Assembly (NCBI GenBank): GCA_036785375.1
Contig: JAWMAR010000051.1
Coordinates: forward strand, 1,364,001-1,428,000
Direction of reading: 5' to 3'
Source: Leucoraja ocellata
Lineage: Eukaryota
Length of the DNA: 64,000 nucleotides
How positions within the stretch are numbered: the first letter of the stretch is position 1; each line of letters opens with the position of its first letter. Below, piece by piece: positions 15,240-45,110 of the stretch. Both the position numbers and the translations under genes were made by a program. The notes below the pieces were generated by a model. That model was not told the origin of the DNA. It was given only the letters and a program-made list of their open reading frames with translations, and did no database searches.

Positions 15240-16010
15240 ATTCATGTTCCAGGAGCAGAATTAGGTTATTCAGACCATTGTCTGTTCCGCCATTCAATTA
15301 TCGCTGATCTATCTCTCCCTCTCAACCCCATTCTCCTGACTTTGCCCCGAAACTCCTGACACCCTTATTAATCAAGAAACTGTCAATCTTCATCTGAAAA
15401 TTATCCACTGACTGCCTCCACAGCTGTCAGTGGCAATGAATTCCACAGGTTCACCACCTTCTGACTAAATAAATTCATAGGGTCATAAGGGGTAGAAGCA
15501 GAATTAGACCATTTGGCCCATCAAGCCTTCTCCGCCATTCAATTATGGCTGATCTACTTCTCCGTCCTAAATCCATTCTCCTGCCTTCTCCCCATTACCC
15601 CTGACACCAGTACTAATCAAGAATATATCTCTGCCTTAAAAATACCCATTGACTTGGCCTGCACCGCCTTCTGTGGCAAAAATTCCACAGATTCATCACC
15701 TTCTGCCTAAATAACTTCCTCCTCATCATCTTTCTAAGGTACATCCTTTCAGTCTGAAGAAGGGTCTCGACCTGAAACGTCACCCATTCCTTCTCTCCAG
15801 AGATGCTGCCTATCCTGCAGAGTTACTCTAGCATTTTGTGTCTATCTTCGATTTAAACCAGCTTCTGCAGTTCTTGCCTATACATCCTTTTTTTAATCTG
15901 AGGTTATCGCCTCTGGCCCTAGACTCTCCCACTATTGGAAATATCCTCTCCACATCCACTCTATCCTCATCTTTCACTGTTCTGTAAGTTTCAATGAGGT
16001 CCCTCTCTCA
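15240..16010 (-). mobile_element. Tandem/nested CR1 3'-UTR fragments
   Basis: Two successive antisense tails (ccgccattcaattat(c/g)gctgatcta...) at ~15240 and ~15478, continuing into ctctggccctagactctcccact. Confidence 0.8.
15750..15880 (+). mobile_element. Penelope-derived short unit with hammerhead-like core and 10-bp TSD
   Basis: cagtCTGAAGAagggtctcgacctGAAACGTC core at 15754-15781. TACATCCTTT at 15740-15749 and 15881-15890. Confidence 0.85.
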
Positions 16011-16327
16011 TTTTCCAAATGGTAGCAGTCTCAGATGCAAGGGTTTATGCTAGTTTTGACCATCATAATTATCTGCCTCTGGTTTCAGAATAGTTAAGTG
16101 TTTTGGGACAATGGATTAATGGAGTCCTGTGCTACACACAAATGCTGAGTGTTCCTCCTGGCACCTGTGCTATATGTCCTCTTCTGCCCACTACTCTCTG
16201 CCCAATGATCAGGTCCCGAATGCAGCAGCAGACTGCAGAATGACTGAGAACTGCTGTCTCCTTAAAATCATCTGAAGGCAAGAGGTTTAGGAGTTATTGT
16301 TGCATTTGCTGCCAGCAGCAGTGCAGC

Positions 16328-16812
16328 CCGACACGTGCATCAGGGTAGGCAAGGTAGGCAGTGCCTACCCTGACTAAAATTATAAAAAGGTAATTATTAA
16401 ATATAATTAGTAAAGATTTCCAATTAATTTACTAAATTCAGTATTTATTATTAATGGTTATTATTTGAATAATCGATCTTAGGTAGGAATAATTCTCCCG
16501 TGCCTTTCATCCGCAGTACACGTAATACGCGTAACAATGTTCAACTCGCATGCTGTGGACGCCGCTTCAAGCCCTCGCTTACAACGTGGGCAATAATGGC
16601 AGCTGAAATTCTGCCTTTGCACCGTGGACTGTGCGCAAGGTGCTGCACATGCCTATAGGAGAGGAGACCAATCTGCGCATATGCGGTTTTTATGATTTAC
16701 TGCGCATGCAAGGTTTTCACAATTTTCTGCACATATGGGTGTTTTTACGATTTCTAAAAGTCGACTGACTGCCTAGTGTCTACCCTGAGTAATTACTCAC
16801 GGCATGTGCCTG
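16328..16812. mobile_element. Non-autonomous hAT-type DNA transposon
   Basis: 8-bp TSD AGTGCAGC (16320-16327 and 16813-16820). Imperfect TIR ccgacacgtgc / gcatgtgcctg. Subterminal tg(c/t)ctaccctga at both ends and internal tgcgcat-type tandem repeats. Confidence 0.75.
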
Positions 16813-16847
16813 AGTGCAGCCTGGGCATAGCAGCACGGCATTGGAGT

Positions 16848-17135
16848 GGCAGGGTGACACAGCAGTTGAGTTGCTGCCTTACAGCGCCAGAGACTTGGGT
16901 TCGATCCTGACAACGGGTGCTATCTGTATGGAGTTTGTACGTTCTCCCCGTGACCGTGTGGGTTTTCCCCTGGTGCTCTGGTTTCCTCCCACACTCCAAA
17001 GGCAAGCATGTTTGTCCGTTAATTGGCTTGGGTAAAGATTGTAAATTGTCCCTAGTGTGTAGGATAGTGCTAGTGTGTGTCGATTGCTGGTTGGTGTGGA
17101 TTCAGTGGTCTGACTATCTCGAAACACTAGACTAA
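16848..17135 (+). mobile_element. HE1/V-SINE-like SINE
   Basis: gagttgctgccttacagcgccagagacttgggttcgatcctga...tggagtttgtacgttctccccgtgacc. Confidence 0.9.
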
Positions 17136-17249
17136 GTTCTGCCTAGCAGACCTCATTGATGGCCTCCATGCATTGCGAGTAGATGATGTTCCGTGCTGCT
17201 AACAGCAGCTTTTGATTCAATACAGCCCAATTTGGTGAGGCAGGTGGTA

Positions 17250-17830
17250 AATATAGAAATGTAGAGAATTGGAGCAGGAGTCGACCATTTGGCCTTGTAC
17301 GGTACAATAGAACTTTATTTATCATAGGAGGGAAATTAATTTGCCAACAGTCATAAAAAAACACAAAATACATGAAACATGAAAATAAAGTGACGAGTGG
17401 TAAGGCTTTGGGGATGTGCAAAGATTGAGGAGGTGGGGGGCAGGGGTCAGTCTCAGTCTAGCCCACGACAGAAGGGGGAAAAGTTGTAAAGTTTGATAGC
17501 CACAGGGAAGAAGGATCTCCTGTGCCGTTTTGTCCTGCAACTTGGTGGATGTTGAGCCTGCACTATAATTGTACATGATCATGGCTAATCCTCTACCTCA
17601 ATGCCTTTCATGTCTGGAAATCTTACCTCCTTCTTAAACATGGTCAGGGACTTAGATTCACCACCTTCTGTGTGAGCAGATTTCACTTTATCTCAGCCCT
17701 AAATGTATTAGATGTATCTTGAGACTAAGATCCCCCAGTTCCTGAAACCCCATCCTGGGGAAACATCCTCCCCACATCCAGTCTGCCTCATCCCATCAGA
17801 AATTTGAATGTTTCCGCGAGTTCCTCTCCT
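17250..17830 (-). mobile_element. CR1 3' end interrupted by a Rex/L2-type LINE 3' end (~17298-17550)
   Basis: CR1 tail ggagcaggagtcgaccatttggcctt|gagcctgcac is split by actttatttatc...tgatagccacagggaagaagga. Confidence 0.6.
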
Positions 17831-17857
17831 AGCCGCCTGAAATCAAATCACTATCAC

Positions 17858-18232
17858 TCAGTTTCAGTTTAGTTTATTGTCATGTGTACTGAGGTATAGT
17901 GAAAAGCATTTTGTTGTGTGATAACCAGTCAGCAGAAAGACAATATATTACAATCGATCCATTCAGTGCAAGGTGAAGCCAGCAAAGTCCGATCAAGGAT
18001 AGTCCGTGGGTCATCAAAAAGGCAGGTAGTAGTTCAGCACTGCTCTCTGGTTGTGATTGGGTGATTGAGTTCCCTGATAACAGCTAGGAAGAAACTGTCC
18101 CCGAATCTGGTGGTGTGCGTTTTCACACTTCTATACCATTTTCCTGATGGGAAAGGGGAGAAGAGGGAATGTCCAGGGTGCAACTCATCCTTGATTATGC
18201 TGCTGGTCTTGCCGAAGCAGCGTGAGGTATAA
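17858..18232 (-). mobile_element. Rex1/Babar-type LINE 3' fragment
   Basis: Tail tttagtttattgtcatgtgtactgagg and ctgataacagctaggaagaaactgtcc are similar to the 5820 region. Confidence 0.65.
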
Positions 18233-19704
18233 ATGCACAGGAGTTGATATCACAAACTGCTTCCTCACATTTATCCCCTGTGTAATGACATCCTTCATGG
18301 AACAGTGCATCTCGGCTTGGCAAGGTTTACAAGCCACACCAAAAATGTCTGATTGCAATTCGTAAAGGAAATTCCAAATAATCTGAACTGACATCTAAAA
18401 CAGTGAAATACAATTGGAACCACAAGACTAGCGTCACGTTCGAAATGTGTTGTGTTTCTTTTGTCGTTCTCCTTTACTTTGCTCGATTTGTAACAAAAGC
18501 AGAGAACATCTTATTATTTGGCACATTCTTACGTATGGCAGTGATTGTTATTTTCACATTGGGGTTTTAAAACTGGCACTGTGAAGAACAAAAACGCTGA
18601 AATGGCATGTGTCCTAACTTTTGAGCAGCAGCAATTTTTATTTATGAAAAAAAGTAAATATTTTTGTGAATCTCGAGCTTAAAGGTGTATTTTCAAATTT
18701 CAGCCCCAATCTGCTGCTGTTAATAATTGGAAATGTGAAATAGGTTCAACAGTGTCTAGACTTGTAAAGGACATAATTGGCTGTGAAACAGTTTGGGATG
18801 TCCTGAGGTCATGAACGATACTGTATCAGTGTAAGTTCTTTTTTCCCTTGTCTTTCTCCCTGGGTGGCAATATATTACCTTTTTGATTGTTCTCTCTTGT
18901 TTCTTTGGGCCACATATCTCTGGATGTTAAGACAGCGTGCGTACCATTGCTAGTTAAATTTCCTCTGAATCTCAATCTTTTCCTTTATATTTCCTACTTC
19001 CTGAATTTTCCCCTGCGGTGACCAAATTTATGGTCTACTACAGTAACTCTTGCTTAAGTTATGTCTAAAGTGCACCATTGGGATGTCATAATAATTTCAA
19101 TATTCTATCTCATCAAATTTAACCAGTTGTGTCCTTCTACGTAGTTTTTTTTTCTGGTGAATTGTTTTGTCTATTAGCTTATGTCTCTCAGGAACATCGA
19201 ATAATTTTTCCTTCACTGCTTTCCTGGTAATTCGTCAAAGGTAATCGATTTCCTCCTCTTTAACAAATGCACCCAATTTTTGTTTTGCCGTAATCTCAAC
19301 AAATCCGAACAAATATACGAGCAAAAGTAATTTACTGGCAAATAAGTGAAAACCTTTAGCCATCTGTCGAATAGCAGTGTAAACTGAGCAGCAGAATGAG
19401 AAGTGCCCTTAACTGAACATAGGACATGGCTGGAAAGAAAGGCACAACCATTTTTTTTTGTTTCTATAAATTTAAGATAACTACATACAGACACCAGCTA
19501 GAGAGTTTGCACAAATTTCAATTACAGGTTTTTGTTAATGAAGTGCTCAACAATGCAATTTTCTGGCTTAGAACCACAGCGTTCAATGTCAGTGTACTAC
19601 TGCTCTGAACGATCAAGACCAAAATGTGTGTTTGTTCCATTTGTCTGAGCAAAAGAGTAGACCTGGCCGGTGTGGATGCATGCAGAGGTAGGCAGAACTA
19701 GGTA

Positions 19705-19862
19705 GAATCTTCAACCTCTGAGATTTTGATTTGTACTGGTGTCCGGGGTTATGGATGGAAGGCAGGAGAATGGGGTTGAGAGGTGAAGTTAGATCAGCCA
19801 TGATTGAATGGAGGAGTAGACTTGATGGGCCGAATGGCCTAATTCTGCTCTTGTAACTTAAG
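19705..19862 (+). mobile_element. CR1 3' tail fragment
   Basis: gatcagccatgattgaatggaggagtagacttgatgggccgaatggcctaattctgctc. Confidence 0.8.
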
Positions 19863-22116
19863 AATTTACCAATTTCAGGAGCAATAATGTTGTGAAAATG
19901 CTACCTTCTCATCTAAATTTGATTAATCCATTCTTGTGAATTGGATTAGCGTTTATGTTGACTATACTGTTACAATATCCTGACATTCTTTGACCAGCCT
20001 CATTCTGCCATTCTGCCTCATTCTGCCAAGGACAATGTGCACACACACTGCAGCTATTCAAGAAGAATACAGGTTGCTGCCCTTTTCGATACCTAAGGAT
20101 GTACCTCATCCTTACCTTAAAACAAAATAACATTATAAATCGCTGCTTTCTGAGAACCAACGACAATAACCTTAGTCTATGCCTGGGAACAGGCGATCTA
20201 CACCTCTCAGTACCAGAATCATATACAGCAGAGCAATGGAAGGTTGCAGTTAATTTACCAGTAGAAAAATACCATTAAAAATTTAAAGAGACATAACTAT
20301 GCTATCAAATTCAAACATTATACACCAGTGAAAAGAAAAATGGAAATGTTATGTGTACATATTCTTGGAGTTGTGAAAGAGTACCATTTAGATGCTTTTC
20401 TTAAAAATTGCATTGAAAAGAATGGATTAATCATTTTATCCTGTCATTCCAGTTTCCATTTTTGCTGTGCGTTACAGTGTACTAAACGGTGATGGATTTC
20501 ATTATCCTTTCTGTGGTACTGTAATTAACTGAAATCCGCACAACCTAATTTTGTGCACAAACATATCCTGAAGATTGCTTTGGCTTGTTTGAAAACTAAT
20601 ACAGTTAGGCTTGTGCAGAACAAATTTAATTTGATGGCAGGTGGTTTGATAAATCAAGAGCCATTGTAAGTCCCCTTTTTTTTTTCAGCGGATGGATTAT
20701 GAGGGGTGAGGGGAAAGTCTCTGAAAGCTCAGTTTCAGGATTTTGGTTGTTCAAAACGCAGAACGGCATCTAATGCCAATCAGATTTTGTCCACGGAGAT
20801 GTTAAATTTTGCGATTTTTCTTGTTGCAAAGGTTATTTTTGTATTAAAGTAAAGGCCATGGCTGCACAGCACGAAGAGAAATTAGAATAACGCTAGTTCA
20901 TATTTCGAAAAATGAAATTGAGATTCCCCAGAGGTTCATAAGCAGTTGCTTTAGGGAAGAAGAAACATTTAATACAGCACTGAAAGGAGCCAAAATAAAG
21001 GGCTCCGTGGTTCTTGTGTAGGATGTAATAGCACATGAGATGCAGCATCCACATTTCCAGCAGCAGTATTAGGTTTCATGCCTTGTTATAGATATTAGTA
21101 TATAGGAGGCAAAATGATTTTTTGTGTTGAGAATATTAGAATTTCAGTGCTCTATGAAAAAGCTGTCAAAATTACCCACATAATGGATACTACACCTAAT
21201 CTTCAAATTTTTGTATAGTTGCTCAAAATGGTTTTTCATCCATATTTGTACTCTTTTGTGTTCAGAAATATTATTACACTGTATGTCAACACGGGTTATT
21301 CTGCCATTATATACCATTTGTAAGGCATTTCTGCTTATTGAGAATTTGTGGTAGGTATGGAGGAAATCAGTGCTTGTGATTCTTGCCTGCTGAAGTACAT
21401 ACTTTCCTCTTGCTCAAGTAACTATTGAACGTCAATGTAATTCTTTAAAAATACAGCATGATAAAGCCTACTTTGGAGTTGCATCATGTTCAATTGACAT
21501 GGAGGGTGGAGAGAGGGGGGGGGGGAGTGGTGGGGGAACGTTTGATGAATATGCAAAGGCAATCTTTATATCTCACCTCTCCATCTCTGTAAGCCAGTAC
21601 AGATATATTCCATAGTAAGATTGTAGTTGAGGGTATTTCCATCAGTTTAATACATTTATTAAATATCTTTGCCATATAGATTTCTCGGAGTATTTAACTA
21701 TTATAACTTGCGGCGCTTAAAGAAATTAGGAAATGATTGGCTTTTATTCTGCGGTCTGTTTCAATCATTGACCTTTTAATTTGCAACTTCAGAATTATAA
21801 CACAGTATGTCAGCACTTGTAATGAAAATTAAATGAAGTCTCGCTGAAAGCATCAACACGAAGATAGATTGGGTCAACAAAAACATTTGCTCTGGATTAA
21901 TGTTATGGCCTCGATGTGGATCTATTTTAAATCTCCTTTTGCAGTATTTATTTCTGGGCTTTTTTTCTGTGTGGCTCAAAGTAGTGTTGATAAGGCAGAT
22001 GGAATTCTGGTAATTACCTGATTTTTGCAAAATCCTGAAAGTAGGTTTGTTATGTTCCTTAATTTAGCAAAGTTCTAAGTATCCCAATTTGCAAAAAAAA
22101 TCAAAAGACATTATAG

Positions 22117-22381
22117 AGGCGGCATGGTGGTGCAGCGGTAGAGTTGCTATTTGATTTAGTCCAGGCTGTACTCCGTGACCTATGTGGGTTTTCTCTGGGT
22201 GCTCCAGTTTTCTCCCTCTCTCCAAAGACATACAGGTTTGTAGGTTAATTGTCTTGATATCATTGTAAATTGTCCCCAGTGTGTGTAGGATAGTGTTTGT
22301 GCAGGAATTGCTGGTCGGTATGGACTCGGTGGGCTGAAGGGCCTGTTTCCATGCTGTCTCTCTAAACTAAACTAAGCTAAA
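22117..22381 (+). mobile_element. HE1/V-SINE-like SINE (internal deletion)
   Basis: ggcggcatggtggtgcagcggtagagttgc head; gggctgaagggcctgtttcc and (ctaaa)n tail. Confidence 0.85.
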
Positions 22382-22384
22382 TTA

Positions 22385-22685
22385 TAGGATAAACCAACAG
22401 AACCTTTTACTCAGAATGGAAATATCAAACACTTGAGGGCAAAGCTATAAGGTGAGAGGGGCAAGGTTTAAAGGAGATCTGCAACGCAAGTTTTTTACAC
22501 AAACGATGGTGATGGAGGCAGAAACAATAGTGGCGTTTAAGCGGTTTTTGGATAGACACATAGATACACAGGAACTGGAGGGTTATGGATTATATGAAGA
22601 CAGGTGAGAGTTTGTCTTAGCATTATGTTCAGCACAGATATTGTGGGCCGAAGGGCCTGCTCCTGTGCTGTACTGTTTATCTATA
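22385..22685 (+). mobile_element. CR1 3' fragment
   Basis: aaggtgagaggggcaaggtttaaaggagat...gtgggccgaagggcctgctcctgtgctgtac resembles 4380-4640. Confidence 0.8.

Positions 22686-26147: not shown

Positions 26148-26151
<4 letters not shown>

Positions 26152-26182
<31 letters not shown>
26152..26182. repeat. (CT)n microsatellite
   Basis: About 15 uninterrupted CT units. Confidence 0.95.
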
Positions 26183-26186
<4 letters not shown>

Positions 26187-28226: not shown

Positions 28227-28702
28227 TAAGGCTTCAATTCACTCCCCAGCCAACATTTTCACTTTGGTGCCTGCTTGGTTCTGTGGAAGTAGATTTGCTT
28301 TGTTCTGGAGTTAAGATGTGTCTCTACTGGGATGCCACTAGGCCTCTTCCGATGCTCTGTAAATGGAACAGAGTATAAAAATGCCAGTGAGGAGGAGGAT
28401 GTTTGGCTTCATAGAGGAAGCTTCCCAGTCAAGAGAAGGATCTTCCCAGTGGAAGGAGTCCAATGAAATGAGTAAGAGAGTATTTGTTGTATATTTTCCA
28501 GTAGAAGATAGCACGACAGTGTGGCCATTGATCCAGAATCAGATGTACAGCTCATTCTCTTTGGCTTACAGAATTCTAAATTAATGCAAGAAAAAAACCA
28601 AATTTAAACTCAATATTTAAACTTTTAAATGAACAGATGCGATATGAAACTTAATTCCCTGATGAAAGAGTGGTGAGCTACTCACCACAAATTAAATATT
28701 GA

Positions 28703-28802
28703 AGATAGATACAAAGTGCAGGAGAAACTCAACGGGTCAGGCAACATATCTGGGGGGAAAAAGGATGGGCGATGCTTCGGGTCGAGACCCTCCTTCAGAC
28801 TA
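28703..28802 (-). mobile_element. Penelope-derived short unit with degenerate hammerhead-like core
   Basis: ttcgggtcgagaccctccttcagact is the reverse complement of agtctgaaggagggtctcgacccgaa. Confidence 0.8.
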
Positions 28803-28826
28803 GTTAGGGAAAAGGGGATACTGAGT

Positions 28827-28913
28827 TGGATGATCAGCCATGATCATATTGAATGGCGGTGCAGGCTCGAAGGGCCGAATGGCCTACTCCTGCACCAAAT
28901 TTCTATGTTTCTA
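28827..28913 (+). mobile_element. Very short CR1 3' tail (~87 bp)
   Basis: tggatgatcagccatgatcatattgaatggcggtgcaggctcgaagggccgaatggcctactcctgcacc...ttctatgtttcta. Confidence 0.85.
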
Positions 28914-29781: not shown

Positions 29782-29815
29782 GTACAAACATGATCTTTTC
29801 TCCCTGTCACCTACA

Positions 29816-30348
29816 GGGCTGCACAGTGGCACTGCTGGTAGAGCTGTTGCCTCAAAGCACCAGAGAACAGAGTTTGATCCTGATCTTGGGTGCTGTCCAT
29901 GTGGAGTTTGAACATTCTCCCTGTGGATTTCCTCGGGGTGCTCTGGTTTCTTCCCACCTTCCAAAGACGTTCGGGTTTGGAGGTTAATTGAGCTCTGTAA
30001 AATTGGCTTCACTGTAGGGAGTGGATGAGGAAGTGGGATAACATAGAACTAGTCTGTGAACAGGTGATCGATGGTTGGCATGGACTTGGCGGGTCTTATG
30101 CCCCTGTCCCAGTTAGGAAACCTGAACGAAAACCTCTGGAGACTTTGCGCTCCACCCAAGGTTTCCGTGCGGTTCCCGGTGGTTGCTGGAGGTTGCAGGT
30201 AGTGGAAGCAGGTAGGGAGACTGACAAAAACCTCCGGGATCCGCACGGAAACCTTGGGTGGGGCGCAAAGTCTCCAGAGGTTTCCGTTCAGGTTTCCCAA
30301 GTGGGACAGGGGCATTAGGGTCTGATCCGTGATGTATCTTTTAATCAA
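29816..30348 (+). mobile_element. HE1-like SINE interrupted by a MITE
   Basis: Head ggtagagctgttgcctc...gtttgatcctga and central domain; the tail resumes after 30317. Confidence 0.8.
30099..30314. mobile_element. Fold-back PIF/Harbinger (Tourist-like) MITE
   Basis: ~80-bp near-perfect terminal inverted repeats (tgcccctgtccca... / ...tgggacaggggca). 3-bp TSD TTA at 30096-30098 and 30315-30317. Confidence 0.9.
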
Positions 30349-31330
30349 ACAAAACCAGCTGGCCAGCAGAGGATCCTTCCCCAGTAACCTCTGAGAAGGG
30401 TATCAATGTAGGAACTGTTGGAGATAAGTATATTTTGACCTAATGGTCAACAGTTCCATTATAGTCAAAACCATTGTTACCTCTCACCTCCATGAAACCC
30501 ATTGGTCCCAATGTTGTGTGATAACCACTTAGCAGACTGCGAATGAGTCTGGGTATCTGCGTATATGTGTTTATTTGGGTGGAGGATAATTGGGCCAGAG
30601 GATGTGGATATTTACATGATATTAGTTGACAAGGAGTACATTTGCCTCTTTATTTTATGGGTTCAGGAGAAAGTAGTCATTTCCATGAGCTTTAAAATTA
30701 TTTATGGTGAAGAGGTTTTGCTGTCATTGCCGGATAATTTAAGGCCGTACCCAATTATTGTTTTGGTGGAAAAGTCCATCAATAATTGATGCAGCAATTG
30801 AGAATTTGAACATATGAAAATGGCCACCTCTAAACTAGAACCTGTCATGCCTTGTTCTTTTTTTTATAGCCAGATAGACATTGTTCAGTTTAAATTAGTC
30901 CAGTTGCCTTGCAGAATTAATAAACACATTGAGGTTACTAATGTTTTCATTCCACCTCCAGTATAAATTCCATTTGGAATATTTTGGAGGACCAAGAAAT
31001 CAAGAACCAAGTAATATTAATTGCCGAATACAGATCCGAACTTAGACAGTAGTCCCTGACCCATTGACAAACATTTTTAAATTTGAAGTCAGAAATTGAT
31101 TGTCCAGTTGGGTAATTAATCATATCCTTTATTTCAATTGAAATTATGAATTCTTTGTTATTTTCCACCGACCTTTCATTTTCTCACTTGAACCCTGATT
31201 TATTTTTTGGGATTGTTGTAAAGGAATTGTGAGTATTAGTGCAATTTTCCAGTATTAGTCTACATCTCTTCCAACCTCCAAAACTGAAGACCTGCACAAT
31301 TGTTCAACTAAGAGAGCTATTCTAAGTTTG

Positions 31331-31545
31331 TGTGAGGGAAAGAACTGCAGTTACTGGTTTATACCAAAGATGAACACAAAATGCTGGAGTAATCAGCGAG
31401 TCAGGCAGCATCTCTGGAGAAAAATAAATTGTGACATTTTGGGTGTGATGAAGGTTCTCGACCCGAAACCTCTCCTTTCCTATTCCTTGTCTCTGGAGAT
31501 GCTGCTTGACCTCCTGAGTTACTCCAGCATTTTGTGCCTATCTTT
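31331..31545. mobile_element. Fold-back (inverted) Penelope-derived unit
   Basis: Antisense arm cacaaaatgctggagtaa...ggcagcatctctggaga and sense arm tctctggagatgctgc...ttactccagcattttgtg flank tgatgaaggttctcgacccgaaac. Confidence 0.8.
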
Positions 31546-31755
31546 GTTATTCTACAGAAATTCTTCTGGCTGTTAAACACCTCACAGAGAAAGGCATGGC
31601 GAAAAACTAGTGAAAAACCATTGTGTTGAATAAATGGGTGTTTTTTTGTGCTCCTAATCACTATTTGCCTAATTTGTAACTAATGGCTACCAATCTTGCA
31701 CTTTGTCTCTCATCCCCTTTCTTTCATCCCGTCAACCTCCATTTCTTATTTGCAG

Positions 31756-31774
31756 AAAACAACTGCGCCTGAAG
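31756..31774 (+). other. Candidate 19-nt microexon
   Basis: Long polypyrimidine tract ending ttatttgcag, several ctaat branch-like motifs upstream, donor GAAG|gtaaaa, and TGCATG at 31921. No homologue recognised. Confidence 0.3.
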
Positions 31775-32063
31775 GTAAAAATTACCACAAGTTTACAAAA
31801 CAGAAATGATTGAGTGAACAAAAGCAATGACAGTCTGTTGAATCAGGTACCGGACAACCTAAAAGCTAATAATCAAAACTCCCACTGGCTGCAGTTCAAA
31901 CCTATTTGGAATTGGAATGATGCATGGATCCAGTGCTGGCTGTGTTCTCTCTGATAGACAAGCAAATTAATTATTTGAATGTTAGTAGATTAAAAAAAAA
32001 CATTGATCTGCAGGGAGAGACACCTATAGTCAGAGACAGGAAGGCCCTGTGAGGATGAGATGA

Positions 32064-32287
32064 TGTGTACCAAGGAACTGCAGATGCTGGTTTACACAAA
32101 GATAGACAAAAAGTGCTGCAGTTACTCAACGGGTCATGCAGCATCTCTGGAGAAAAGGAATGGTTGATGTTTCACGTCGAGACCCTTCTTCAGATTGAAG
32201 ATAGGCATCGAGCCAAAAGGTCACCTATTACTTTTCTCCATAGAAGCTGCCTGGCCCTCTGAGTCACTCCAGCATTTTGTGCCTATA
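32064..32287. mobile_element. Fold-back Penelope-derived unit
   Basis: Antisense arm through gtcgagacccttcttcaga, followed by sense arm tgaagatagg...gagtcactccagcattttgtg. Confidence 0.75.
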
Positions 32288-33974
32288 TATGGGGAAGAGA
32301 TTAGATTGGGGAAGAGAGAGCTGTTGACTTGTTTGTGATCAGGCATGAGATCTTCCATTATGGCCCAAAATTTGTTCTAACCAAAACAAATTATACAAAA
32401 CATTATGGCCTGTTTTAGTCTATTGACTCTTCCCTGTTGTGGGAGGGAGATACACACAGTAGAGGCCTTAAGAACAGAGAAGGTAGAACAGTACATCAAC
32501 ACAGGAGCCGTCCCTTCAGCTCACATTGTGCCAATCATAATTCTTGTCTAATTAATCCATTTGCCAGCATATGTTCCATATCCCTCTATTCCCTCTTTGT
32601 TCATGTGTCTGTCAAAATGTTTCTTAAACGTTGTTACTGTATCTGCTTCTGCGATCGTCTGTGGACCATCTCCACGTCTCCAAATCCGTCTTATGTGACC
32701 AGGCCCGCATACAATAAACAGGCTTCTTTGACATAATCTTAAACTGATGTTATGACTGATGACCATATTGGATTGTGACTTTTTAATTTCAGCAAGTCTT
32801 CCGTGCTCCTAAATCTGTACCATTAAAACTACGCTACCAAAGAATATAGTCCGTTGAAGTAAAGAACTGAACTTTTCAAATTTCAACATTTTCCATGCAC
32901 TGTCCTTGAAAAGAGAACCGGGTGTTAAACTTTCAGCTCAAGTCTATATGAGATTTACTTTAATGTATTGGTTTACTATTAACTTTCCAGGGAATTTTTC
33001 CAACAGATCACTTTCTTCTGATGGTTTATTTTAAACTCGGAGAATTTTAAAATATAAATTAGTTGAACAAAATACATTTTCACGTGTCTCTTTAACTCTG
33101 AGAGAATTATGAATAAGAAATGTACAAATAAAACACAAAATGATTGCACATGAATTGGATGGACTGCTGTCCACCTTGCTGGCTTGTGTTGTCTATGTTG
33201 TGCAATCTATATTGGCAACTAACTTAGCAAAATACTGAAGCATTTTCCTGAATGAATCACTTTCATGACAGAATATAACCAATTCCATGTTGCATTCTTA
33301 TGACAAAAATGTTCTTAGTAGTTGCACGCTGGTACGTTTTTGTAACACTTAGCATTTTATCAAGAAGCTCTACTTTTCTTAGGATGATGCCTGCCAATAT
33401 ATTTTTTAATTAATTCCATAAAATATATACAGGTTTATGGAGATTATACTTTCTGTTTCAGAACAATTTGGAATTTTTTACGTTAACATATTTTTCAGTC
33501 ATTTGGGTTGCAGTATAAACCTAATCAGAACTTTATATTCTTTTACGCATTGGATAAACCTTTTGATATTTAAATTAAAACTAACATTCCAGTGATAACG
33601 AGAACAAGTGAGTTGTAAAGTGCATCCTTTTGATCTGCTCCAAGCATGTATTGTAAAACAGTTTATTTTAGATAAGTGCATAGGAAAAATGAGATTTTAT
33701 TTATATATTTGATAAGTGCGTTAATTGCATCGAGGCTATGAATGCTATCAGTGTGCTTTTCCTATCAGCATTTGAAAGCAATTCCACAAATTTAGTGATA
33801 ATATTTTGAACTATAGTTTTGCGCAACATTCATGGTTTGCCATTAGGTGCACAAGACCAGTCACTTTTGATAAGGCCAACTACTTGGAGTCTGCTGTCTG
33901 TGTTTTTGTTCAACAAATTTAAAAAGGAACAGTGACATGCCACACATATATAAGTGCATTTTCTATTATGACTC

Positions 33975-35224: not shown

Positions 35225-35472
35225 GAATTTCTATAGTCGGAGGGTAGTGAAGCTGTAGAATTTGTTGCTATAGACGGCTGTGAGGCCACTGATGGATATT
35301 TTTAAGGTAGAGATTGACAGATGCTTGATTTGTAAAAGTGTTAGGCTTATGGGGATAAGGCAAGAGAATGTAGTTGAGAGGGAAATATCGATTAACCATG
35401 ATTGAATGGCGGAGTAGACTTAATGGGCCGAACGGCCTAACTCTGCTCCTATAACTTATGAACCTATGAACT
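35225..35472 (+). mobile_element. CR1 3' fragment
   Basis: agtcggagggtagtgaagctgtagaat...atgggccgaacggcctaactctgctcctataacttatgaacctatgaac. Confidence 0.8.
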
Positions 35473-36977
35473 ACTGCCAAAAACCAATTTAACCCACAGG
35501 AATTCTTACTAATTTAATTTATAATGGGAAAACAGTGAGGAATAACAAATATTTTTCACATTCCATTTTGCTCTGACATCAACATTGATTTTTTGAGAGG
35601 GTTCTTTCTGAGTCAGATTCTTGACTCGCCAATCCTTGGTCCCTTTGATAAACCTCTGCTGCGTTCTCCAACCTTTCTAGAGAGGTTCCCTGCAAATTAT
35701 AACTAAACAGAAACAAAATCATGAATTCTGTATTCTGCTAAATATTGCGGGTAAATTAATTCCTGATGGATCGGTGTGTTTGAGTCGCCCTCATGAGATG
35801 AGCAATATTCTCAAATGGAAAAACTCATAAAGAAAATGTTTACACACAAAAAAATCTCATCAAGGAACATAAAATCACAACACAAAGCTAACTTCCCACA
35901 GAAGAAAACAAAGATAATGCTTAACATATCCAAGACCCTGAATTGTTATAGATGTAGTCTTTCATCAAACCAAGAAAGTGAATTGATGATCCATTGGAAC
36001 TGGGATGCAAGCAGCAAAAACAAACAAAAGTTGGCAAGGAAAATTAATTACGTATAAAATCCGCATTTAAAAAAGATAACTATTTGACCAACTAAGCCCT
36101 TTCCATCACTTTATGAACCACAAACGATCTGTTGGTTTAATCCCCGATTCCTACCTTGCTCCATATCCTTCAATAATCTTATTTCCAAACAAAACTGGCA
36201 AACATGAGTTAGTTAACTATTAAGTACCTTGTAAGCCAATTTAACCTTGACTTTATTTCTAATTAAAGAATAGTTAAGGATACCGTTTCCAAGGGGTCAG
36301 GTAATGCTGCGCCTATATGTTATGTACATTCATAACTTGTATTAATCTTTATTCTGATTCCATGCTTATGGCTATTAAGGGGTACAGCTGCGAACCAAGG
36401 ACATTAATTGTCTGTTCCAAGCACTCAAAATCAGTATGAGCTGATAAAAAAAAAAAGTCCCCTCAAGATTAAAATGTGTTAAAATAGTAATATGTGCCAG
36501 TTTGTTCTAGTGCCTTTATTGTCTGAATCTCTTTCATGCACCTTATGCACTTAGAAGGCAGTGATTGTGAAGATTCCCCTATTAGCATGCCCAGGAGCCC
36601 TGTGCATTCAGCTGAAACTAACCCAAACAGGCTGGCATGTTGCCTGCACCTCTTAAACTGAAATCAGCTACTGTATCCCACAACAGTTTGGTTAATGTGT
36701 AGCTTGAAAAATAGTCAAGAGTGTTTTGTTGTCATATGTCCCTCCAGGGAACAATGAAATTCTCACTTGATAGCTGTACATACACCAGACTCCTACTCGC
36801 ATATGCCAATCTGTGAGAACCTGGTGGATCGATTGAAGGACCTGCAGATGAGATGCTCCTAGAAGCCACTGAGGACTGAAATAAAGCTACAGTGGGAGAA
36901 CATGTCAGAGAGATCGCAGCTTGCAGAGATGCCCTGGGGATGAGGGGGAAATAGAATGTGTGAAGGATTAAGTAAGA

Positions 36978-37086
36978 ACAGTCTCAGTCTGAAGACTTAG
37001 TCTGAAGAAGGGTCTCAACCCGAAACGTCATCTACTCCTTCTATCCAGAGATGCTGCCAGAATTACTCCAGCATTTTGTGTCTGTC
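36978..37086 (+). mobile_element. Penelope-derived short unit with hammerhead-like core and 10-bp TSD
   Basis: agtCTGAAGAagggtctcaacccGAAACGTC with a stuttered 5' end (agtctgaaga duplicated). TTAAGTAAGA at 36968-36977 and 37087-37096. Confidence 0.85.
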
Positions 37087-37584
37087 TTAAGTAAGAGCAT
37101 ACCGTGATCCTCAATAGTATTCAAAGTGCCACTAGCTTTTGAAAATAACCTTGTGCTTGGTTAAGAACAATGAAATTAGCAACAAATTTCCTCCATTAAA
37201 TGTGAATTTCACACTAAACGAACACTCAGACACAATTTTAGTACATTTACATACATCTCTCATCTTAAGCACACCTACCATTAGTCATTTTTGCTAGGTA
37301 TATCATAGGAACACATTGTAGCACAGTCACTAATACTTTCCCCTCTCTCTTGCAGGGCATGGTTGCTTGCAGCCACACACTGCAACAGCATGTATGGGGT
37401 TGGGGACCTTATCATGGTCATTGGCCCTTTTATTTGGCAAAGAGTGTAGTGGCCATGGGCTCATTTGTCACTTTGAATAATATTGAGGATTACAGTATGG
37501 TCTTATTTAATCCCCCTCATACCCCACACTCCCATTATCCCACAATTCATTTTGGGTTTGTGATATCTACTTGATTCAAGTACA

Positions 37585-37880
37585 CATAGAAAATAGACGC
37601 AGGAATAGGTCATTCGGTCATGGCTGATCATCCAATATCAGTAACCCATTCCTGCTTTTTCCCCACATCCCTTGATTCCGTTAGCCCTACGAGCTAAATC
37701 TACCTGTAACTCTCTATTGAAAACATCCAGTGAATTGACCTCCATTGCTTTATGTGGCAGAGAATTCCACAGATTCACAACTCTCTTCCCCATCTCAGTC
37801 CTAAATGGCCTACCCCTTATTCTTAAACTGTAATCCCTGGTTCTGGATTCCCCCAACATGGGGACCATTTTTCCTGCTTT
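37585..37880 (-). mobile_element. CR1 3' fragment
   Basis: ORF ESRTRDYSLRIRGRPFRTEM...RVVNLWNSLP; same family as 74-627. Confidence 0.9.
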
Positions 37881-39262: not shown

Positions 39263-39526
39263 ACAGAGACTTGGGTTTGATCCTGACTATGGGTGCTATC
39301 TGTAAAGAGACATACGATCTCCCTGTGGCCGCGTGGGTTTTCTCCGTGTCCGGTTTTCTCCCACATTCCAAAGACGCACAGGTTTGTGCGTTAATTGGTT
39401 TCTGTAAATTGTCATTATTGTGTAGGATAGAACTAGTGTACAGGTGATCGATAGTCGGTGTGGACTCGGTGTGCCAAAGGGCCTGCTTCCATGCTGTATC
39501 TCTAAACTAAGCTAAACTAAACTAAA
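39263..39526 (+). mobile_element. HE1/V-SINE-like SINE
   Basis: gggtttgatcctgactatgggtgc...; (ctaaa)n tail. Confidence 0.85.
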
Positions 39527-40358
39527 GTGCACAGGTGGTGTCACAGCTGTTCCATGCTTATTTATCATGAAGAGACCTGTGGTCAATGTCTCAGCTCCCA
39601 TAACAGGAGAAGCAGAATCTATCTGCAGTGTAAGTCTTCCCCCATAACCAGGGCACAGGGCTCAATGTGGTCTTAGGATGGGGGTGGGCAAGAAACAACA
39701 GTTCAGCATTCTAACCTCCAGAGATGGCAGAAAGGCTACTTTGGGGGAAAGACAATGTCTTTGTGGATCATGAATTAACTGTTCTCCAGTCGGGTGATGA
39801 CGTTTGTGATCCTAGAACTTCTCCAGAGTCTTGTTGCAGCCAGTTAACCAGACAGGCCAAATAGCTGCTGTCATGACATAAGGGGTGCCTACCTACAGGG
39901 CAGCTTGTGTGTCTTCCTCCAAATTCACCTGCCGTCTCTTTCTTTGTAAGCTTTGTGGCTTCCAGCTGTCACCTGCATATATTGGAGAGATTCTGCAATG
40001 AATTATCAAGCATTTCTTTCCAACCCAACTTTTCCATATGATGACTTTTAAGGCAATTAGTTGATATTTGTGTCAGTGTTGTTGAAATTGGACTTTTTAG
40101 AGATGATTTGGAATGTATATTTAGAATGGTTTTCTTTCAACGATGTCAAGCAGATGCTAAGATGATTGGTAATAGACAATGGTAAGATAGAAAGAATTGA
40201 ACTATTTTATTGAAATTGCACCTTGTTTAAAGAACACTTTGCACTTTGTTTGGGATGCCATCCCATCTTCCGCTTCATTACTCTGTGCAACTCTGATAAG
40301 TCCTCCAATAATTAAATAATATTTCCCTGTCACAAACCATCCTTTGGGTGTGTCAGCA

Positions 40359-40458
40359 AGTCTGAAGAAGGGTCCCAACTCGAAACATCACCCATCCTTT
40401 TTCACCAGAGATGCTGCCTGACCTGTTGAGCTACTCCAGCACTTTGTGTCTATCTTTA
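40359..40458 (+). mobile_element. Penelope-derived short unit (degenerate hammerhead-like core)
   Basis: agtctgaagaagggtcccaactcgaaacatcacccatcc...ctactccagcactttgtgtctatct. Confidence 0.8.
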
Positions 40459-42139
40459 CCACACTGCAATCATTGGGGATCCATTTAACTAGAACAAGTG
40501 GGGGTGCCTTTCTGCAACCAAATGAACACAAGGCTTTAGCTGTATAATTAGATCCAATCTGATCACATTCCTGCCTATATTGCACATCAGTTGCTGCTCG
40601 CATCAATAAATGTGGTCGGGATGGGAAGCAACAAAATGTGCACGCTGTGTTTAAATTTGAGCCTAAGCAGCACCTGTGATACCTGGACAACGGACGTTAC
40701 GGAGCCCAGTATTATGCCCTGCAACTGTTAAGTTATTTAGGATGATATGATTTGAACTGAATGCGAGTCCTATGTCAACGCAACTTAAGAGGCTTATTTC
40801 CCAAGCTGTTCTTTATTAGCTGAAATTATTGTCCACCAATGTGCACGTTACAGCTACACAGCATGCCACTGCCAGAGAAGAAATAAACAGCAGAAATTGC
40901 GGAAGCATCTCAAATAGCAGGGCATGGAGTTCAAATGCAAAAATATTGGCAACTCGTTTTTGCAATACCTCCTACTGCAATAGAGGCATTTATTCAGGTA
41001 CCCAATTACAGTAATGTGGTATGCAGTATGTACTGTAGATAGGTGTTTCTGCAGCATGCCAGAAGAAACAATTGTAATCCTTTAAATGCACTTAGGAAAT
41101 TGATGTTACAGCCTACAATCTGTTGCCGGACTTGCTTCCTGGCTGATTGCAAGCATTTCTATCTTAATTGGATCACTGGAATGTGATCTGTATTTTGGTT
41201 TTAAGATTATGTAAGACTGTGACTTTGTTGTGACAGCCTAAAACAGCTGCTGAATTGATGGATATTCTGACCCTTAATGTAGATAAGTGGTATTTGCAAA
41301 TCTGTCCACATAGATCCTTGGAAAAACTGCTTAAAAAAGACAGTGTCCATCTTATGTAGGACCTTTAACTTAATTTTCATTTCTTTAATTTAATACCATT
41401 GCTACGCAGAACTGCCATCGATCAGCCCAACAGATTCTGAGATGAATTGTTTATTAATCCATTTTTAAATTGTACTGAAAGTGGATTTATAGCAATGACA
41501 TTTTTATGGTATCGTATGTGGTATTTGGTTTAGTTTATAAGCTATATTGATTTTCTTACATCATCAGGCCCAAAAGTACAACATATGTCCAGCTATTATT
41601 AATATCACCCCCACAGCATAACTAGTCATGAAGTATACGATCGGTGTCAGACTTAGATTTGTTTTTCATGTCATATGCAGTTTTGTTAGGGCTGGATATT
41701 AACCTTGCCTATTGTCATGTTTGAACAGAGCAATGTTCCAGTGTCTGAAACAAAACTCACTGCTTGTTAATAGAATTTTGAAGAACTAAGGAGAAAACAT
41801 CACTGCTGGAATTGTAAATGTGAAAAAGTTCATTTAACAGCTAGTTTCATTATGAAATACCAAGAATGAACATGCATGTGTCATGCTTATTTGAACTATT
41901 ACAGCCATGGGTCGGAGAAGATGAACAGAACTGATAGGTTTACTCCTTAAGAGCTGGCATAGCCCCGATGGGCTAAATTGCCCTTTTCTCTGCCTTAACA
42001 ATCCTATATTTCTGTGAATAAAAATTACTCAACAATATAATTTAGTGTCGCACAAATCTGAAAAACTTTGAAGAGAAGGAGTAGCAATGAGATTGTACTC
42101 AAAACTGAAAGGAATGTTTTTTTTGTATTTTCCATTCAG

Positions 42140-42175
42140 GCAGTCTTTGGCAACAGGTCCACATAAGAGTACCAG
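42140..42175 (+). other. Candidate 36-nt frame-preserving cassette exon
   Basis: Acceptor ttttttttgtattttccattcag, donor CAG|gtactt; open in two frames (QSLATGPHKST or SLWQQVHIRVP). No homologue recognised. Confidence 0.25.
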
Positions 42176-43578
42176 GTACTTTATTATTTTAAGGCCACTT
42201 TAAAATTAATAGACGGCACATTGGACACACTGCAACAATCAATTTAACTGTAGACTTAATCTAAGATGCATAATTGTTATCAGGTTCCAATCCGTTATAA
42301 AATGTATTCCATTAAAAATATTGATATGATTTGACTCCTTACCCTTGAAATTAGGCACTGTTATAAAAATGTGATAAAATAATCTGGGGAGCCAGGTGGT
42401 GATAGTTGACTGAACTTTTTCAACGCCAGCTTGTTGTATATACAGTGCACCAACATCAAGGGCAATGCACATTGAGTCACATGAGGTTGCAAAAGGTGTG
42501 CTAAGAATGCCTTTGATAGTGTCCAAATGATAGACGTGGACCTCATTTACTACCTTCCCTTCATCCTGCCCCAGGTCTAGCAAAGACTGCATTATTAAGA
42601 GCATAAGTGCAGAATGGTCAAAAGGTAGAAACAGAAGAAAAAGGCAACTTGCTATCAGATAGTCAAAGGATGGTGTAATTTAATGTTATTTGAAATATAG
42701 CTGGAGAAAGAGGAGACCAATTCTGCCCAAACATTAGAAAATAAATCCAGCAAAAGCTATGTGAAGCTCAGCTGCTGATTTGTAACAGCAAATATCTTGG
42801 ATAGTTGAGTTTTGTTTGTGAGGTATTTTAGTCCATCAACAGACTCGGTAAAATGGATATTCCTGGTGTGATCCATATGTAACTTGGTGTCTGAAGGCCT
42901 TATCTTTAAGATTTTAGACCACCCTTCTTAATGGGTTCCCCTTATGGCAAATGTGATAACAGGGCAGGATGAATGGGTTGCCCTTGGGTTTACAAATCAC
43001 CTCACTTTTTTTATTTAGAAGGATGTGCAAGCTCTTGATTGTGTTACAGAGAGTAATCACCTGTTTCTTCTTGTAGTAAATATATAGTTTTCTGGTTTTA
43101 AGTCTTGTATCTTATCAATTACTTAAACAATAAAAGTTCTCCTTTTCTTTTTTTGGTTCATATGAGGATTTTACTAATATTCCCGGTCTTACAATTTTTC
43201 CATGTTTTCACTCTAAAGCAGTTTTATTGTTTTTTTGTAGATTAATTAGTTAAATAATATAAATATAGTTAGTCTATCAATTAATTAATGCTAAATCAAT
43301 TAATTTGCCTGCCATCAAACTAACAGGTAGTCACTAGGTACCGGTGTTTAAATACTTTTTTTTAACAGAAAGGGCATTCACATTTTGATAAAATGCAGAT
43401 CATATTAGGTTTAAATCAGTTTGTTATCAATTAAATGCGACCTTATTCTCTGGTGAGTAAGGTACCATTCATTCACCTGTAATGTTAACAACTAAATGAT
43501 CAATAATCCATTGGATATGTCAGAATTGCCACACGTGGGACAAATCTCATATATCCCTGTACCATCTGAAAATGGGCT

Positions 43579-43825
43579 TTGTCCCACCCCGTCTCTTTTC
43601 CAGTTTTCTCCCTCCCTTCCACAATCAGTCTGAAGAAGGGCCATGACCCGAAGCATCACCTATCCATGTCCTCCAGCGATCGGTCTGAAGAAGGGTCTCA
43701 ACCCTTCACCCATTCCTTTTCTCCAGAGATGCTGCCTGGCCCACTGAGTTACTCCAGCATTTTGTGTCTATCCTCCAGAGATACTGCCTGACTTGCTGAG
43801 TCACCCCAGCAGTTTGTGCTTTGAT
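43579..43825 (+). mobile_element. Penelope-derived unit with a second copy (43681-43770) nested inside it
   Basis: Two ctgaagaaggg cores. tcctccag(c/a)gat is duplicated at 43669-43680 and 43771-43782. Confidence 0.8.
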
Positions 43826-44723
43826 CTGAATCCAGTAGCAAGCTTTACCTCCTTTCTAGATTATATACAAACATTTTTAATGAGGTAAAGTGTTAAAGGT
43901 GTGGAACTAAAAGTGAGTTGTTTTTCTTTACCATTAGGCCTACAGAGTAGAAGCTTCAGAACGTGAGTGAAGCTATTGCTAACACAAGGCAGGGTCGCCA
44001 TTTTCCTGCGGGAGGAGAATCCCTGATTTCTTTGAAACATTATAAATCGCACTAAATAATTACATAATTATTTTATGGTCATTCTAGATGAAAAATATGT
44101 AAATTTCCTTGTCATGGTCTGCTACAGAAATAAATCTTTGAACTTATTAACTTATACTATGATATGAGGAACATGACTGATCTCACCAACTAAATTTATG
44201 TAGAAAAATGATTCTACTAAAATGATTGTGCTAAGTAGTTTAAATTGCACTAATAAACTATTAACCAGATAATTCAGAGAGGATTTTTTTCCTTAAATGT
44301 GTAATAGCATGTAATACATTTTCATTTTTCAAATTTGGTTTTCTGTTTTTATTTTCAAATTAATTTGGGATGAATAAGGCAATGGCATTACCATTATTGG
44401 TTTATTTAATTATTTCAGCACAGTAATTTGTTTGAGTTAAGAATGTAAATAAATTTATGTAACATTTAAAGATGTAATGATTGCAGCTTTTTTTAGATGG
44501 ATGAAACTATAATATATTTTATGCCCAATGTTTTCTTTGGAAATTGCAAATATAAAGTATTCTGTTGCAGACATCAATCTATTAAAACAAAATACTGACT
44601 GGCATTTTATAATCTTAGAAAATTTAAAGTAAAGAAGACGGCCATTTAATCCATCTCCATGCTACTCTAAAAATAATTCCACTGACTAATCCCACCGTCC
44701 AGCAATAACAAAGCAGATCTCAG

Positions 44724-45110
44724 CTCACACCTCCGCTCAGTCCGTCTTAACATATCCGGTGGCCCAGCACTTCGACTACCCCTCACATTCCCAATCTGAC
44801 CTTTCTGTCCTGGGCCTCTTCCACTGTCAGAGTGAGGCCCAGAGCAAATTGGAGGAACAGCACCTCATATTTCGCTTGGGTAGTTTACACCCCAGTGGTA
44901 TGAACATTGGCTTCTCTAACTTCAGATAGCCCTTGCTTTCTCTCTCCTTCCCCTTCCCAGTTCTCCCATTAGTCTTACTGTCTCTGCCCACAGTCTATCT
45001 TTGTCCTGCCCCCTCCCCTGACATTAGTCTGAAGAAGGGTCTCGACCCGAAACGTCGCCCATTCCTTCTCTCCATAGATGCTGTCTCACCCACTGAGTTA
45101 CTCTAGCATG
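44724..45110 (+). mobile_element. Penelope-like element 3' end: GIY-YIG endonuclease C-terminus, 3' UTR and hammerhead-like motif
   Basis: PVAQHFDYPSHSQSDLSVLGLFHCQSEAQSKLEEQHLIFRLGSLHPSGMNIGFSNFR* (stop 44927-44929) fits the PLE GIY-YIG C-terminal pattern VAxHF...E...I..L....P.G.N; it is followed by the core at 45029-45056. Confidence 0.85.
45029..45056 (+). ncRNA. Minimal type-I hammerhead-ribozyme-like core
   Basis: CUGAAGA, an extra A, stem II GGGU/ACCC with a CUCG loop, GAAA, palindromic ACGU, and a GUC triplet. Stem I pairing is weak (about 2 bp), so activity is uncertain. Confidence 0.6.

Follow-up and report, generated by a model that had tools for sequence, protein, structure and literature searches.

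Introduction

Penelope-like elements (PLEs) carry minimal hammerhead ribozymes in their terminal repeats, and thousands of solo minimal hammerheads per genome, "widespread as single elements" and probably truncated PLEs, have been reported along with opposite-strand pairs (PMC4209133). Here we describe short dispersed units of this type in a 64,000-nucleotide (64-kb) stretch of the genome of the skate Leucoraja ocellata, hereafter the window (assembly GCA_036785375.1, contig JAWMAR010000051.1, positions 1,364,001 to 1,428,000 of the forward strand; coordinates below are positions in the window). The units agree with the published motif in the core, the extra base between 9 and 10.1, the G10.1-C11.1 pair, the palindromic 15.2-16.2 segment and the location in a terminal repeat. 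Stem II has 4-5 bp here versus 7-8 in Schistosoma, and the 2-bp stem I is also found in D. virilis (PMC4209133). The main text of that paper, taken without its supplements, names no cartilaginous fish and describes no fixed 5' start of solo copies.

Three other described systems are close. Endonuclease-bearing (EN+) PLEs of the Neptune/Nematis type are reported with 5' truncation, inverted 5'-truncated copies, an optional tail of 30-40 bp, target-site duplications (TSDs) of 8-10 bp, palindromic junctions and solo pseudo-long terminal repeats (pLTRs), as is the case here (Craig et al. 2021, PMC8557442; Arkhipova et al. 2013, PMC3846280). Unlike those insertions, the inserts in the window are reduced to the last 95-135 nt, and solo copies have TSDs of their own, whereas several solo pLTRs described in A. 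vaga lack them, which was ascribed to deletion or recombination. The Poseidon element PAc of Anolis carolinensis (Frangieh et al. 2024, PMC11167929) likewise has two reverse transcriptase (RT) start sites and a tail ~100-130 nt downstream of the hammerhead; both target strands are nicked and extended at AT-rich sites, uncleaved RNA is inserted, and the hammerhead is protein-assisted. PAc belongs to another clade (a Neptune-type linker is seen in the relatives of the present family), and the present unit differs in having no identified start of an open reading frame (ORF) and in showing 2-4 nt of 3' microhomology. In PAc and A. vaga there is overlap between the start of the ORF and the pLTR or tail; none was found for this unit among 156 fetched proteins. 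The main text on PAc does not discuss the 5' ends of short genomic copies. Metazoan non-LTR retrozymes are also short, non-coding, type-I-hammerhead repeats of PLE-pLTR origin with dispersed monomers (PMC7229834; bioRxiv 10.64898/2026.07.22.740005); they are defined by head-to-tail tandems and circular RNA, whereas the window has neither tandems nor ends defined by the cut site.

Hammerheads in PLE terminal repeats, solo truncated dispersal, tails and inverted pairs are already published; the family is an expected addition from a new host group, and its unusual point is a fixed 5' start. No published account of this batoid family, or of a 5' stop at a fixed position, was found in a search that did not extend to Repbase/Dfam and several supplements, and the chondrichthyan families of the 2026 preprint might include this unit. 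The units correspond to the final 95-135 nt of the parent's terminal repeat, beginning at the hammerhead motif and finishing at one or the other of two 3' ends. We give a probability of roughly 0.7 to the reading that they are short dead-on-arrival products of ordinary Neptune/Nematis-type PLE retrotransposition and not a separately replicating ribozyme element. PLE transcript starts, intron retention and the in vivo role of the hammerhead are treated as open in the published accounts (PMC8557442, PMC11167929), and the boundary may offer a lead on PLE replication.

Copies of the family and their parent

A profile hidden Markov model (HMM) seeded with 10 window copies was searched against the whole window, the seeds being included in the matches, and gave 17 segments at E<1e-5 and three weaker ones; a reversed-window control gave nothing below E=3.8. 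Merging of nested and split pieces resulted in 13 insertion events with 16 arms (Table 1), which occupy ~2.0 kb (3.1%) of the window and come in two sizes, ~95-100 nt and ~130-135 nt. Extrapolated from this one window, ~13 events per 64 kb would correspond to a very large copy number in a skate genome. An earlier reading made from the letters alone (the sequence-only reading) had counted about a dozen copies of one family, and all 11 positions it listed hold family sequence; the event at 57409 is additional. Its entry at 58275 stands as a family member and fails as a hammerhead copy, being the tail-bearing distal piece of an older, split inverted pair. Divergence among copies is 5-18% and CpG-biased.

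The parent is represented by the copy at 45025. The protein fragment encoded by 44753-44929 shares 80% and 73% identity with two predicted proteins of Leucoraja erinacea, which match Pfam GIY-YIG at a level under the curated cutoff, and the window fragment by itself has no Pfam match. This identity (73-80%) confirms that the copy is attached to a GIY-YIG C-terminus, and the ORF-attached copy supports the proposed Penelope origin of the units. The order at the parent copy is GIY-YIG C-terminus, a 95-nt untranslated region (UTR) and the hammerhead motif, with the UTR 80% pyrimidine across the 30 nt upstream of -4 (unit numbering sets C3 of the hammerhead core to 0 and places the predicted cut between +27 and +28). 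By tblastn, this is the sole PLE ORF remnant in the window, and no RT remnant of the family was found there; short units and ORF-bearing copies stand at 12:1.

Relatives from Stegostoma, Chiloscyllium and a slug combine RT, a cysteine linker and GIY-YIG. Under a relaxed pattern, a CX2-6Cxx(C/F) linker is present in 103 of the 113 fetched proteins with YxG[EQ]T, including the closest relatives (P0002, P0005 and P0007); it is degenerate in P0004, and the linker region is missing from the window copy. A CX2-5CxxC linker between RT and EN marks Neptune and Nematis and is described as absent from Penelope and Poseidon (PMC8557442). The units are the terminal (pLTR) segment of a PLE, which on the linker seen in these relatives is probably of the Neptune/Nematis type.

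The shared 5' boundary

Measured from C3, the 13 events start at +12, -4, -20, +15, 0, -4, -3, -55, -4, -315, -1, 0 and +43, the less favorable value having been taken for pairs and for the copy at 28802 (-20). Seven of them start 0-4 nt before CUGA, within a 6-nt span (p<=0.0035 under six null models), as do 10 of the 16 arms. A non-random common 5' boundary, as the sequence-only reading proposed, therefore holds in the window against simulated nulls. That reading had given starts 3-5 nt before CUGAAGA for four copies, which is correct for 15750 and 43681 (-4) and for 40359 (-3); the fourth, 28802, is ambiguous (-4 to -20), the 20 nt upstream resembling both the parent UTR (uncorrected p=0.014) and a neighboring repeat. 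Three of the 13 events reach further upstream (one ambiguously) and three are cut shorter, so that the starts grade into the parent. The pair 58566/58569, which is older and more diverged, shows the same boundary, so this is not confined to one young lineage. At 36978 there are three reiterated segments, each beginning at about YAGTCT, as would arise if reverse transcription jumped between templates on reaching the end of an RNA (n=1).

The clustering bears directly on random 5' truncation, under which it would be small-sample noise combined with an ascertainment effect of using the core as seed. PLEs are typically 5'-truncated to a large extent, six of the 13 events start elsewhere, and the weakest test gave p=0.036; against this, all 14 null simulations of 5' clustering gave p<0.04, two TSD-bounded copies start at -4 and a third reiterates the same point, which leaves random truncation very improbable.

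Self-cleavage was ruled out as the source of the boundary, which lies ~30 nt upstream of the predicted cut; none of the 16 arms starts within 5 nt of the cut (+28). For PAc, uncleaved RNA is reported as the insertion substrate, with no reads ending at the cut in the published account (PMC11167929). The boundary word, YCAGTCT, can be read as an initiator or as a splice acceptor following the pyrimidine tract. A spliced template was dismissed as the immediate cause, since the YAG-equivalent bases are kept and an upstream exon is lacking in two copies bounded by TSDs.

3' ends, inverted pairs and target-site duplications

The units have two classes of 3' end, at ~+92 to +98 and ~+126 to +131, ~35 nt apart, which match the optional tail of published PLEs and the two RT start sites of PAc, where the tail is the interval between two internal start sites (PMC11167929). 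Three events (31331, 32062 and 58275-58650) are head-to-head pairs, and in all three the tail is on one arm only, as in the scheme of the legend to Fig. 2 of PMC8557442. The two 3' ends and the head-to-head pairs, both absent from the sequence-only reading, connect the units with ordinary PLE integration. Upstream of the short 3' end, AGAUGCUG is predicted to form a stem with CAGCAUUU (unit ~+47 to +82; e.g. window 15800-15875), and the word CCAGCA recurs in the tail ~15-20 nt from the long end, a similar distance; together they are a candidate for a repeated RT-positioning signal.

The TSDs that had been noted at 15750 and 36978 (10 bp, exact) and at 43681 (12 bp, 1 mismatch) were confirmed. 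With a slop of +/-12, an exact 10-bp duplication occurred in 0/400 random intervals and a 12-bp duplication with 1 mismatch in 3/400; with +/-3, either occurred in 0/1500. The TSDs of the pairs at 32062 and 31331 are weaker (a 9-bp duplication with 1 mismatch was reached by 34/400 null intervals at +/-12 and 12/1500 at +/-3), and the adjacency test at 31331 used a left end moved post hoc by 4 nt. No TSD was detected at the other 8 events, among them the 58275 pair, with a match of only 7 bp, and 57409, which lay outside the TSD test. In all three copies with solid TSDs the element sequence runs on into the first 2-4 bases of the TSD, which suggests that microhomology may assist priming at the sense 3' end.

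The pairs also bear on an explanation in which priming or cutting sets the boundary, either by self-priming of an antisense template at a palindromic junction or by a nick in the element's own pLTR upstream of the hammerhead. The head-to-head junctions 32193/32195 and 58566/58569 are near-palindromic, a small hairpin lies at 36985-36996, and antisense self-priming has been proposed by Arkhipova (PMC3846280, Discussion); PAc nicks its own pLTR at ATT (PMC11167929), and ATT/AAT occurs at -7..-4 in two parent-type UTRs. However, TSD-bearing solo units show the same boundary without inversion, the microhomology is at the sense 3' end, and the arms of a pair are only 72-77% identical and have few non-CpG minority alleles in common. 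PAc uses sense RNA in vitro, and ATT is a very common word. This explanation is judged quite unlikely.

The hammerhead motif

The pattern CTGANGA-N12-18-GAAANNTH has 7 matches in the window versus 0.36 expected, a number reached in none of 100 shuffles, and family copies account for 5 of the 7. Across an 11-arm alignment (which leaves out 43630, 49603, 57409, 58566 and 58569, in all of which the core is changed or absent by eye), all 12 scored positions of the core (C3UGANGA9, G12AAA15.1, U16.1H17) are kept in 5 arms and the 5' half of the core is lacking in 2. The palindrome ACGT is kept in 3 of those 5 arms (15754, 37002 and 45029), and the central dinucleotide is CA or TG in 5 further arms, as CpG decay predicts. 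The motif at 45029 has the extra nucleotide between 9 and 10.1, a stem II of 4-5 bp and a palindromic ACGU stem III, which would permit helix III to form in a dimer; helix II is closed by G10.1-C11.1 in 45029 and 37002 and by G.U in 15754. This core anatomy and the pattern enrichment bear out the assignment to minimal type-I hammerheads, and the cut expected after 45056 is placed correctly. The string CUGAAGA-A-GGGU(CUCG)ACCC, quoted for the best copies, is found at 45029 only, 37002 having a CUCA loop and 15754 the G.U at 10.1-11.1. Stem I was called weak and has indeed only 2 bp. Full core and palindrome together are kept in only 3 of the 11 aligned arms, and most copies are probably inactive, in line with the earlier suggestion.

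The sequence-only reading had named a core no better conserved than its flanks among the results that would count against it, and within the window the core is indeed not significantly more conserved than downstream sequence (7/98 vs 73/670 changes at non-CpG positions, Fisher p=0.29). No better conservation of the core is what neutrally decaying copies would give; copy decay looks neutral, with the core of dispersed copies apparently unprotected. In predictions the hammerhead fold is not the most stable one (-6.7 kcal/mol for the 45029 dimer vs a cofold minimum free energy, MFE, of -19.8 kcal/mol), and the MFE folds pair the core with the downstream pyrimidine tract, although nearest-neighbor energies leave out the catalytic core and Mg2+ and are no proof of inactivity. 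The RNAalifold consensus also differs from the hammerhead fold, with a double-sided change in 0 of 17 pairs, the copies being decay products of near-identical sources. No Rfam hammerhead model matched the whole window or 45000-45120 at E<=10, which we infer to reflect models that do not cover minimal variants and not evidence against the motif, and prokaryotic genome contigs scanned for the exact motif had 0 matches. In the zebra-shark relative P0004 the reading frame runs on into the 3' UTR as SLMKGLRPKRQ, in the same frame as SLKKGLDPKRR of the window. This protein-level trace, found in 1 of 156 proteins, suggests an element with a CUGAUGA core, changed at the free position 7, and would support conservation of the hammerhead at the family level.

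A short, PLE-derived, non-coding repeat with a type-I hammerhead motif is what one would expect of a non-LTR retrozyme, in which hammerhead self-cleavage frees units that are then circularized and re-inserted, and vertebrate retrozymes, one of them chondrichthyan, are reported to derive from pLTRs and to include monomers (bioRxiv 10.64898/2026.07.22.740005). Against this, no head-to-tail arrays are present among 15 tandem-repeat rows for the window, and what looks like a tandem at 43625-43835 is one copy nested in another. The cleavage site forms neither end of any unit, ends are not randomly permuted, and all units are colinear from core to tail; they are shorter than the 150-450 bp repeats of PMC7229834, and the folding energies above also disfavor the hammerhead. 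The retrozyme label of the sequence-only reading is accordingly not borne out, and a retrozyme origin is very unlikely. The halves of the host copy on either side of the 43681 insert are colinear. The nested insertion at 43625-43770 places two same-strand hammerhead cores, both now broken, 55 nt apart, and such nesting is a possible ready route to a cis-dimer or a tandem retrozyme seed.

Origin of the units

Under the preferred reading, an ordinary PLE by-product, the RT-GIY-YIG protein would bind the terminal-repeat RNA segment and nick AT-rich DNA with a 9-12 nt stagger, by analogy with the Anolis PLE (PMC11167929). Reverse transcription would be primed internally at one of two sites, ~+94 or ~+130 from C3, aided by the 2-4 nt of microhomology, and extension of both nicked strands would give a head-to-head pair with the tail on one arm. 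Synthesis of cDNA would often stop 0-4 nt upstream of CUGA. The hammerhead would travel as an uncleaved passenger, and any cleavage function would sit with the tandem RNA of the parent, as a dimer or with protein help, while dispersed copies decay neutrally. We infer the cause of the boundary: within this model there is about an even chance that the template RNA ends there, at a transcription start or processing site at YCAGTCT, and a somewhat smaller one that the folded or protein-bound hammerhead region acts as a terminal roadblock or fold-back point. Of the two options in the sequence-only reading, a ribozyme-headed retroelement or a structure-defined end point, the second fits better.

A more tentative possibility, and a doubtful one, is that a discrete RNA of 100-135 nt truly begins at the 0-4 nt start, the unit itself, with its start site, uncleaved hammerhead and signals for RT binding and priming, being transcribed and re-mobilized as the smallest self-sufficient PLE substrate. 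This would make the family a Pol III (RNA polymerase III)-independent, ribozyme-headed class similar to short interspersed elements (SINEs); its thousands of copies in the genome would then mark where the reverse-transcription intermediate of PLEs begins and ends, and the role of the hammerhead would be structural and non-cleaving.

SINEs are recognized by a Pol III head, a 3' end derived from the partner element, a TSD and a master lineage of their own. The findings here are mixed, with TSDs (3 solid and 2 weaker of 13) and a common start (7/13) present and a Pol III promoter not found. A non-autonomous ribozyme-headed retroposon, in which a few masters of 100-135 nt are transcribed from the first base and mobilized in trans by the PLE protein, would account for the fixed start, the TSDs and the excess of short units. 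Internal promoters are known in PLEs (PMC2377424), pLTRs are reported to suffice for mobilization in trans (PMC3846280) and there are non-autonomous PLEs (PMC8557442); grouping of the short arms as a clade is also not rejected (below). On the other side, A and B boxes were not found in the 3 copies scanned, a tRNA head and an A-tail are absent, and the Rfam matches from the window scan include no Pol III-type head. A minority allele at +39 is common to two TSD-bounded units and the ORF-attached copy (15750 also shares +75) and three other short units share different alleles (+64 and +80), signals that are weak and rest on few sites. The same boundary in the older family and the continuum of starts with the parent also count against such masters. 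In the tree of 12 arms, 0 of 9 branches were supported, subfamily statements rest on a few shared sites only, and the short copies do not resolve as their own lineage; the SINE-like label of the sequence-only reading is not established, and a short master is unlikely.

Several points weigh against the by-product reading. The window contains no full-length parent, and the unit searched as an ORF N-terminus against 156 fetched proteins gave only noise (E>=0.003). A short-only single-master origin of the ten younger short arms was not rejected by the approximately unbiased (AU) test (p=0.317), the tree giving no resolution. Without the inverted pairs the clustering drops to 5 of 10 events (p=0.002-0.036); the sample comprises just 13 events from one window, the 5' ends were placed by eye, null models were assumed and the HMM was seeded on the same copies. 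The PAc priming site is reported as non-homologous to its target, whereas microhomology is seen here. Initiator-like words turn up often, at 12.8 matches per kb of strand. For D. virilis the start site has been placed at 371, ~120 nt upstream from the hammerhead, while helix I is abutted by the 3' end of an intron (416-491); by this layout the YAG may be a splice acceptor, and a start site here should not be assumed.

Table 1. Copies of the family, segments of the ORF-attached copy and target-site duplications in the window.
Feature	Position	Strand	Remarks
C-terminal part of PLE GIY-YIG endonuclease, 5'-truncated, frameshifted	44715..44929	+	in frame 44753-44926, stop 44927-44929
Parent 3' UTR, pyrimidine-rich	44930..45024	+	YAG at end, just before hammerhead motif
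Best-preserved minimal type-I hammerhead motif	45025..45058	+	C3=45029, predicted cut after 45056
Downstream part of ORF-attached copy	45059..45139	+	short 3' end, 11-nt insertion, TSD not found
Solo unit, start -4, long form with tail	15750..15880	+	core intact, G.U at 10.1-11.1
TSD of 15750 unit	15740-15749 / 15881-15890		10 bp, exact
Solo unit, short form, reiterated 5' end	36978..37086	+	core intact, C3=37002
TSD of 36978 unit	36968-36977 / 37087-37096		10 bp, exact
Solo unit, start -4, short form, GAAA deleted	43681..43770	+	nested in another family copy
TSD of 43681 unit	43669-43680 / 43771-43782		12 bp, 1 mismatch
Host copy of 43681 insert, related subfamily	43575..43835	+	~55 nt of upstream UTR; core at 43630, A15.1 changed
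Solo unit, start -3, short form	40359..40456	+	TSD not found; stem III CG decayed to CA
Solo unit, short form, two core changes	28702..28802	-	TSD not found; 5' end ambiguous, -4 to -20
Head-to-head inverted pair	32062..32290	.	minus arm 32062-32194 with tail, start -1; plus arm 32195-32290 short, start 0
Candidate TSD of 32062 pair	32053-32061 / 32293-32301		9 bp, 1 mismatch
Head-to-head inverted pair	31331..31545	.	minus arm with tail, truncated at ~+15; plus arm short, start ~-2
Weaker candidate TSD of 31331 pair	31316-31324 / 31546-31554		9 bp, 1 mismatch
Older head-to-head pair	58275..58650	.	both arms start at ~0
Minus arm of 58275 pair	58528-58566	-	with distal tail-bearing piece 58275-58345
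Plus arm of 58275 pair	58569-58650	+
Decayed unit, start -1, internal microsatellite expansion	49445..49604	-	inside LINE-like fragment; TSD not found
Unit truncated within stem II, short form	13172..13255	-	5' end +9 to +15; TSD not found
Old copy truncated at ~+43, tail present	57409..57485	+	no hammerhead

Other features of the window

The window is repeat-rich vertebrate DNA with a GC content of 34-49% per 2 kb and one N gap (58875-59057). Several copies of the hammerhead family lie inside or beside fragments resembling long interspersed elements (LINEs) (13261-13334, 28808-28913, 49330-49720, 58359-58522 and 45110-45323), probably CR1-type from their translation; one such insert (~58359-58522) splits the minus arm of the 58275 pair. 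A second, more abundant interspersed repeat of ~300 bp, presumably SINE-like, has copies 65-85% identical at 8162-8466, 12025-12328, 16840-17113, 22173-22387, 29821-30096, 39264-39528, 47271-47577, 50379-50674 and 56391-56698.

A 214-bp near-perfect inverted repeat at 30100-30313, a hairpin like those of miniature inverted-repeat transposable elements (MITEs), adjoins a SINE-like repeat; its score of 97.9 bits to Rfam MIR820 (gathering 196) is most likely due only to the long hairpin. A Tc1/mariner-like remnant at 52612-54216 has inverted repeats (52612-52819 and 53985-54204, 88%) around a decayed transposase (53253-53660; Pfam HTH_Tnp_Tc3_2, E=1e-5, below cutoff), and a further Tc1/mariner-like repeat copy is at 48502-48690. 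A weak RVT_1 match (E=0.004) at 3226-3531 resembles a decayed RT fragment of a long terminal repeat (LTR) retrotransposon. The open frame at 60512-60832, which has no Pfam match and a protein-like composition, is possibly a host exon. A 300-bp two-copy repeat (57537-57824 and 59690-59988, 88% identity) lies on either side of the N gap and a TG-rich array and is possibly a local duplication.

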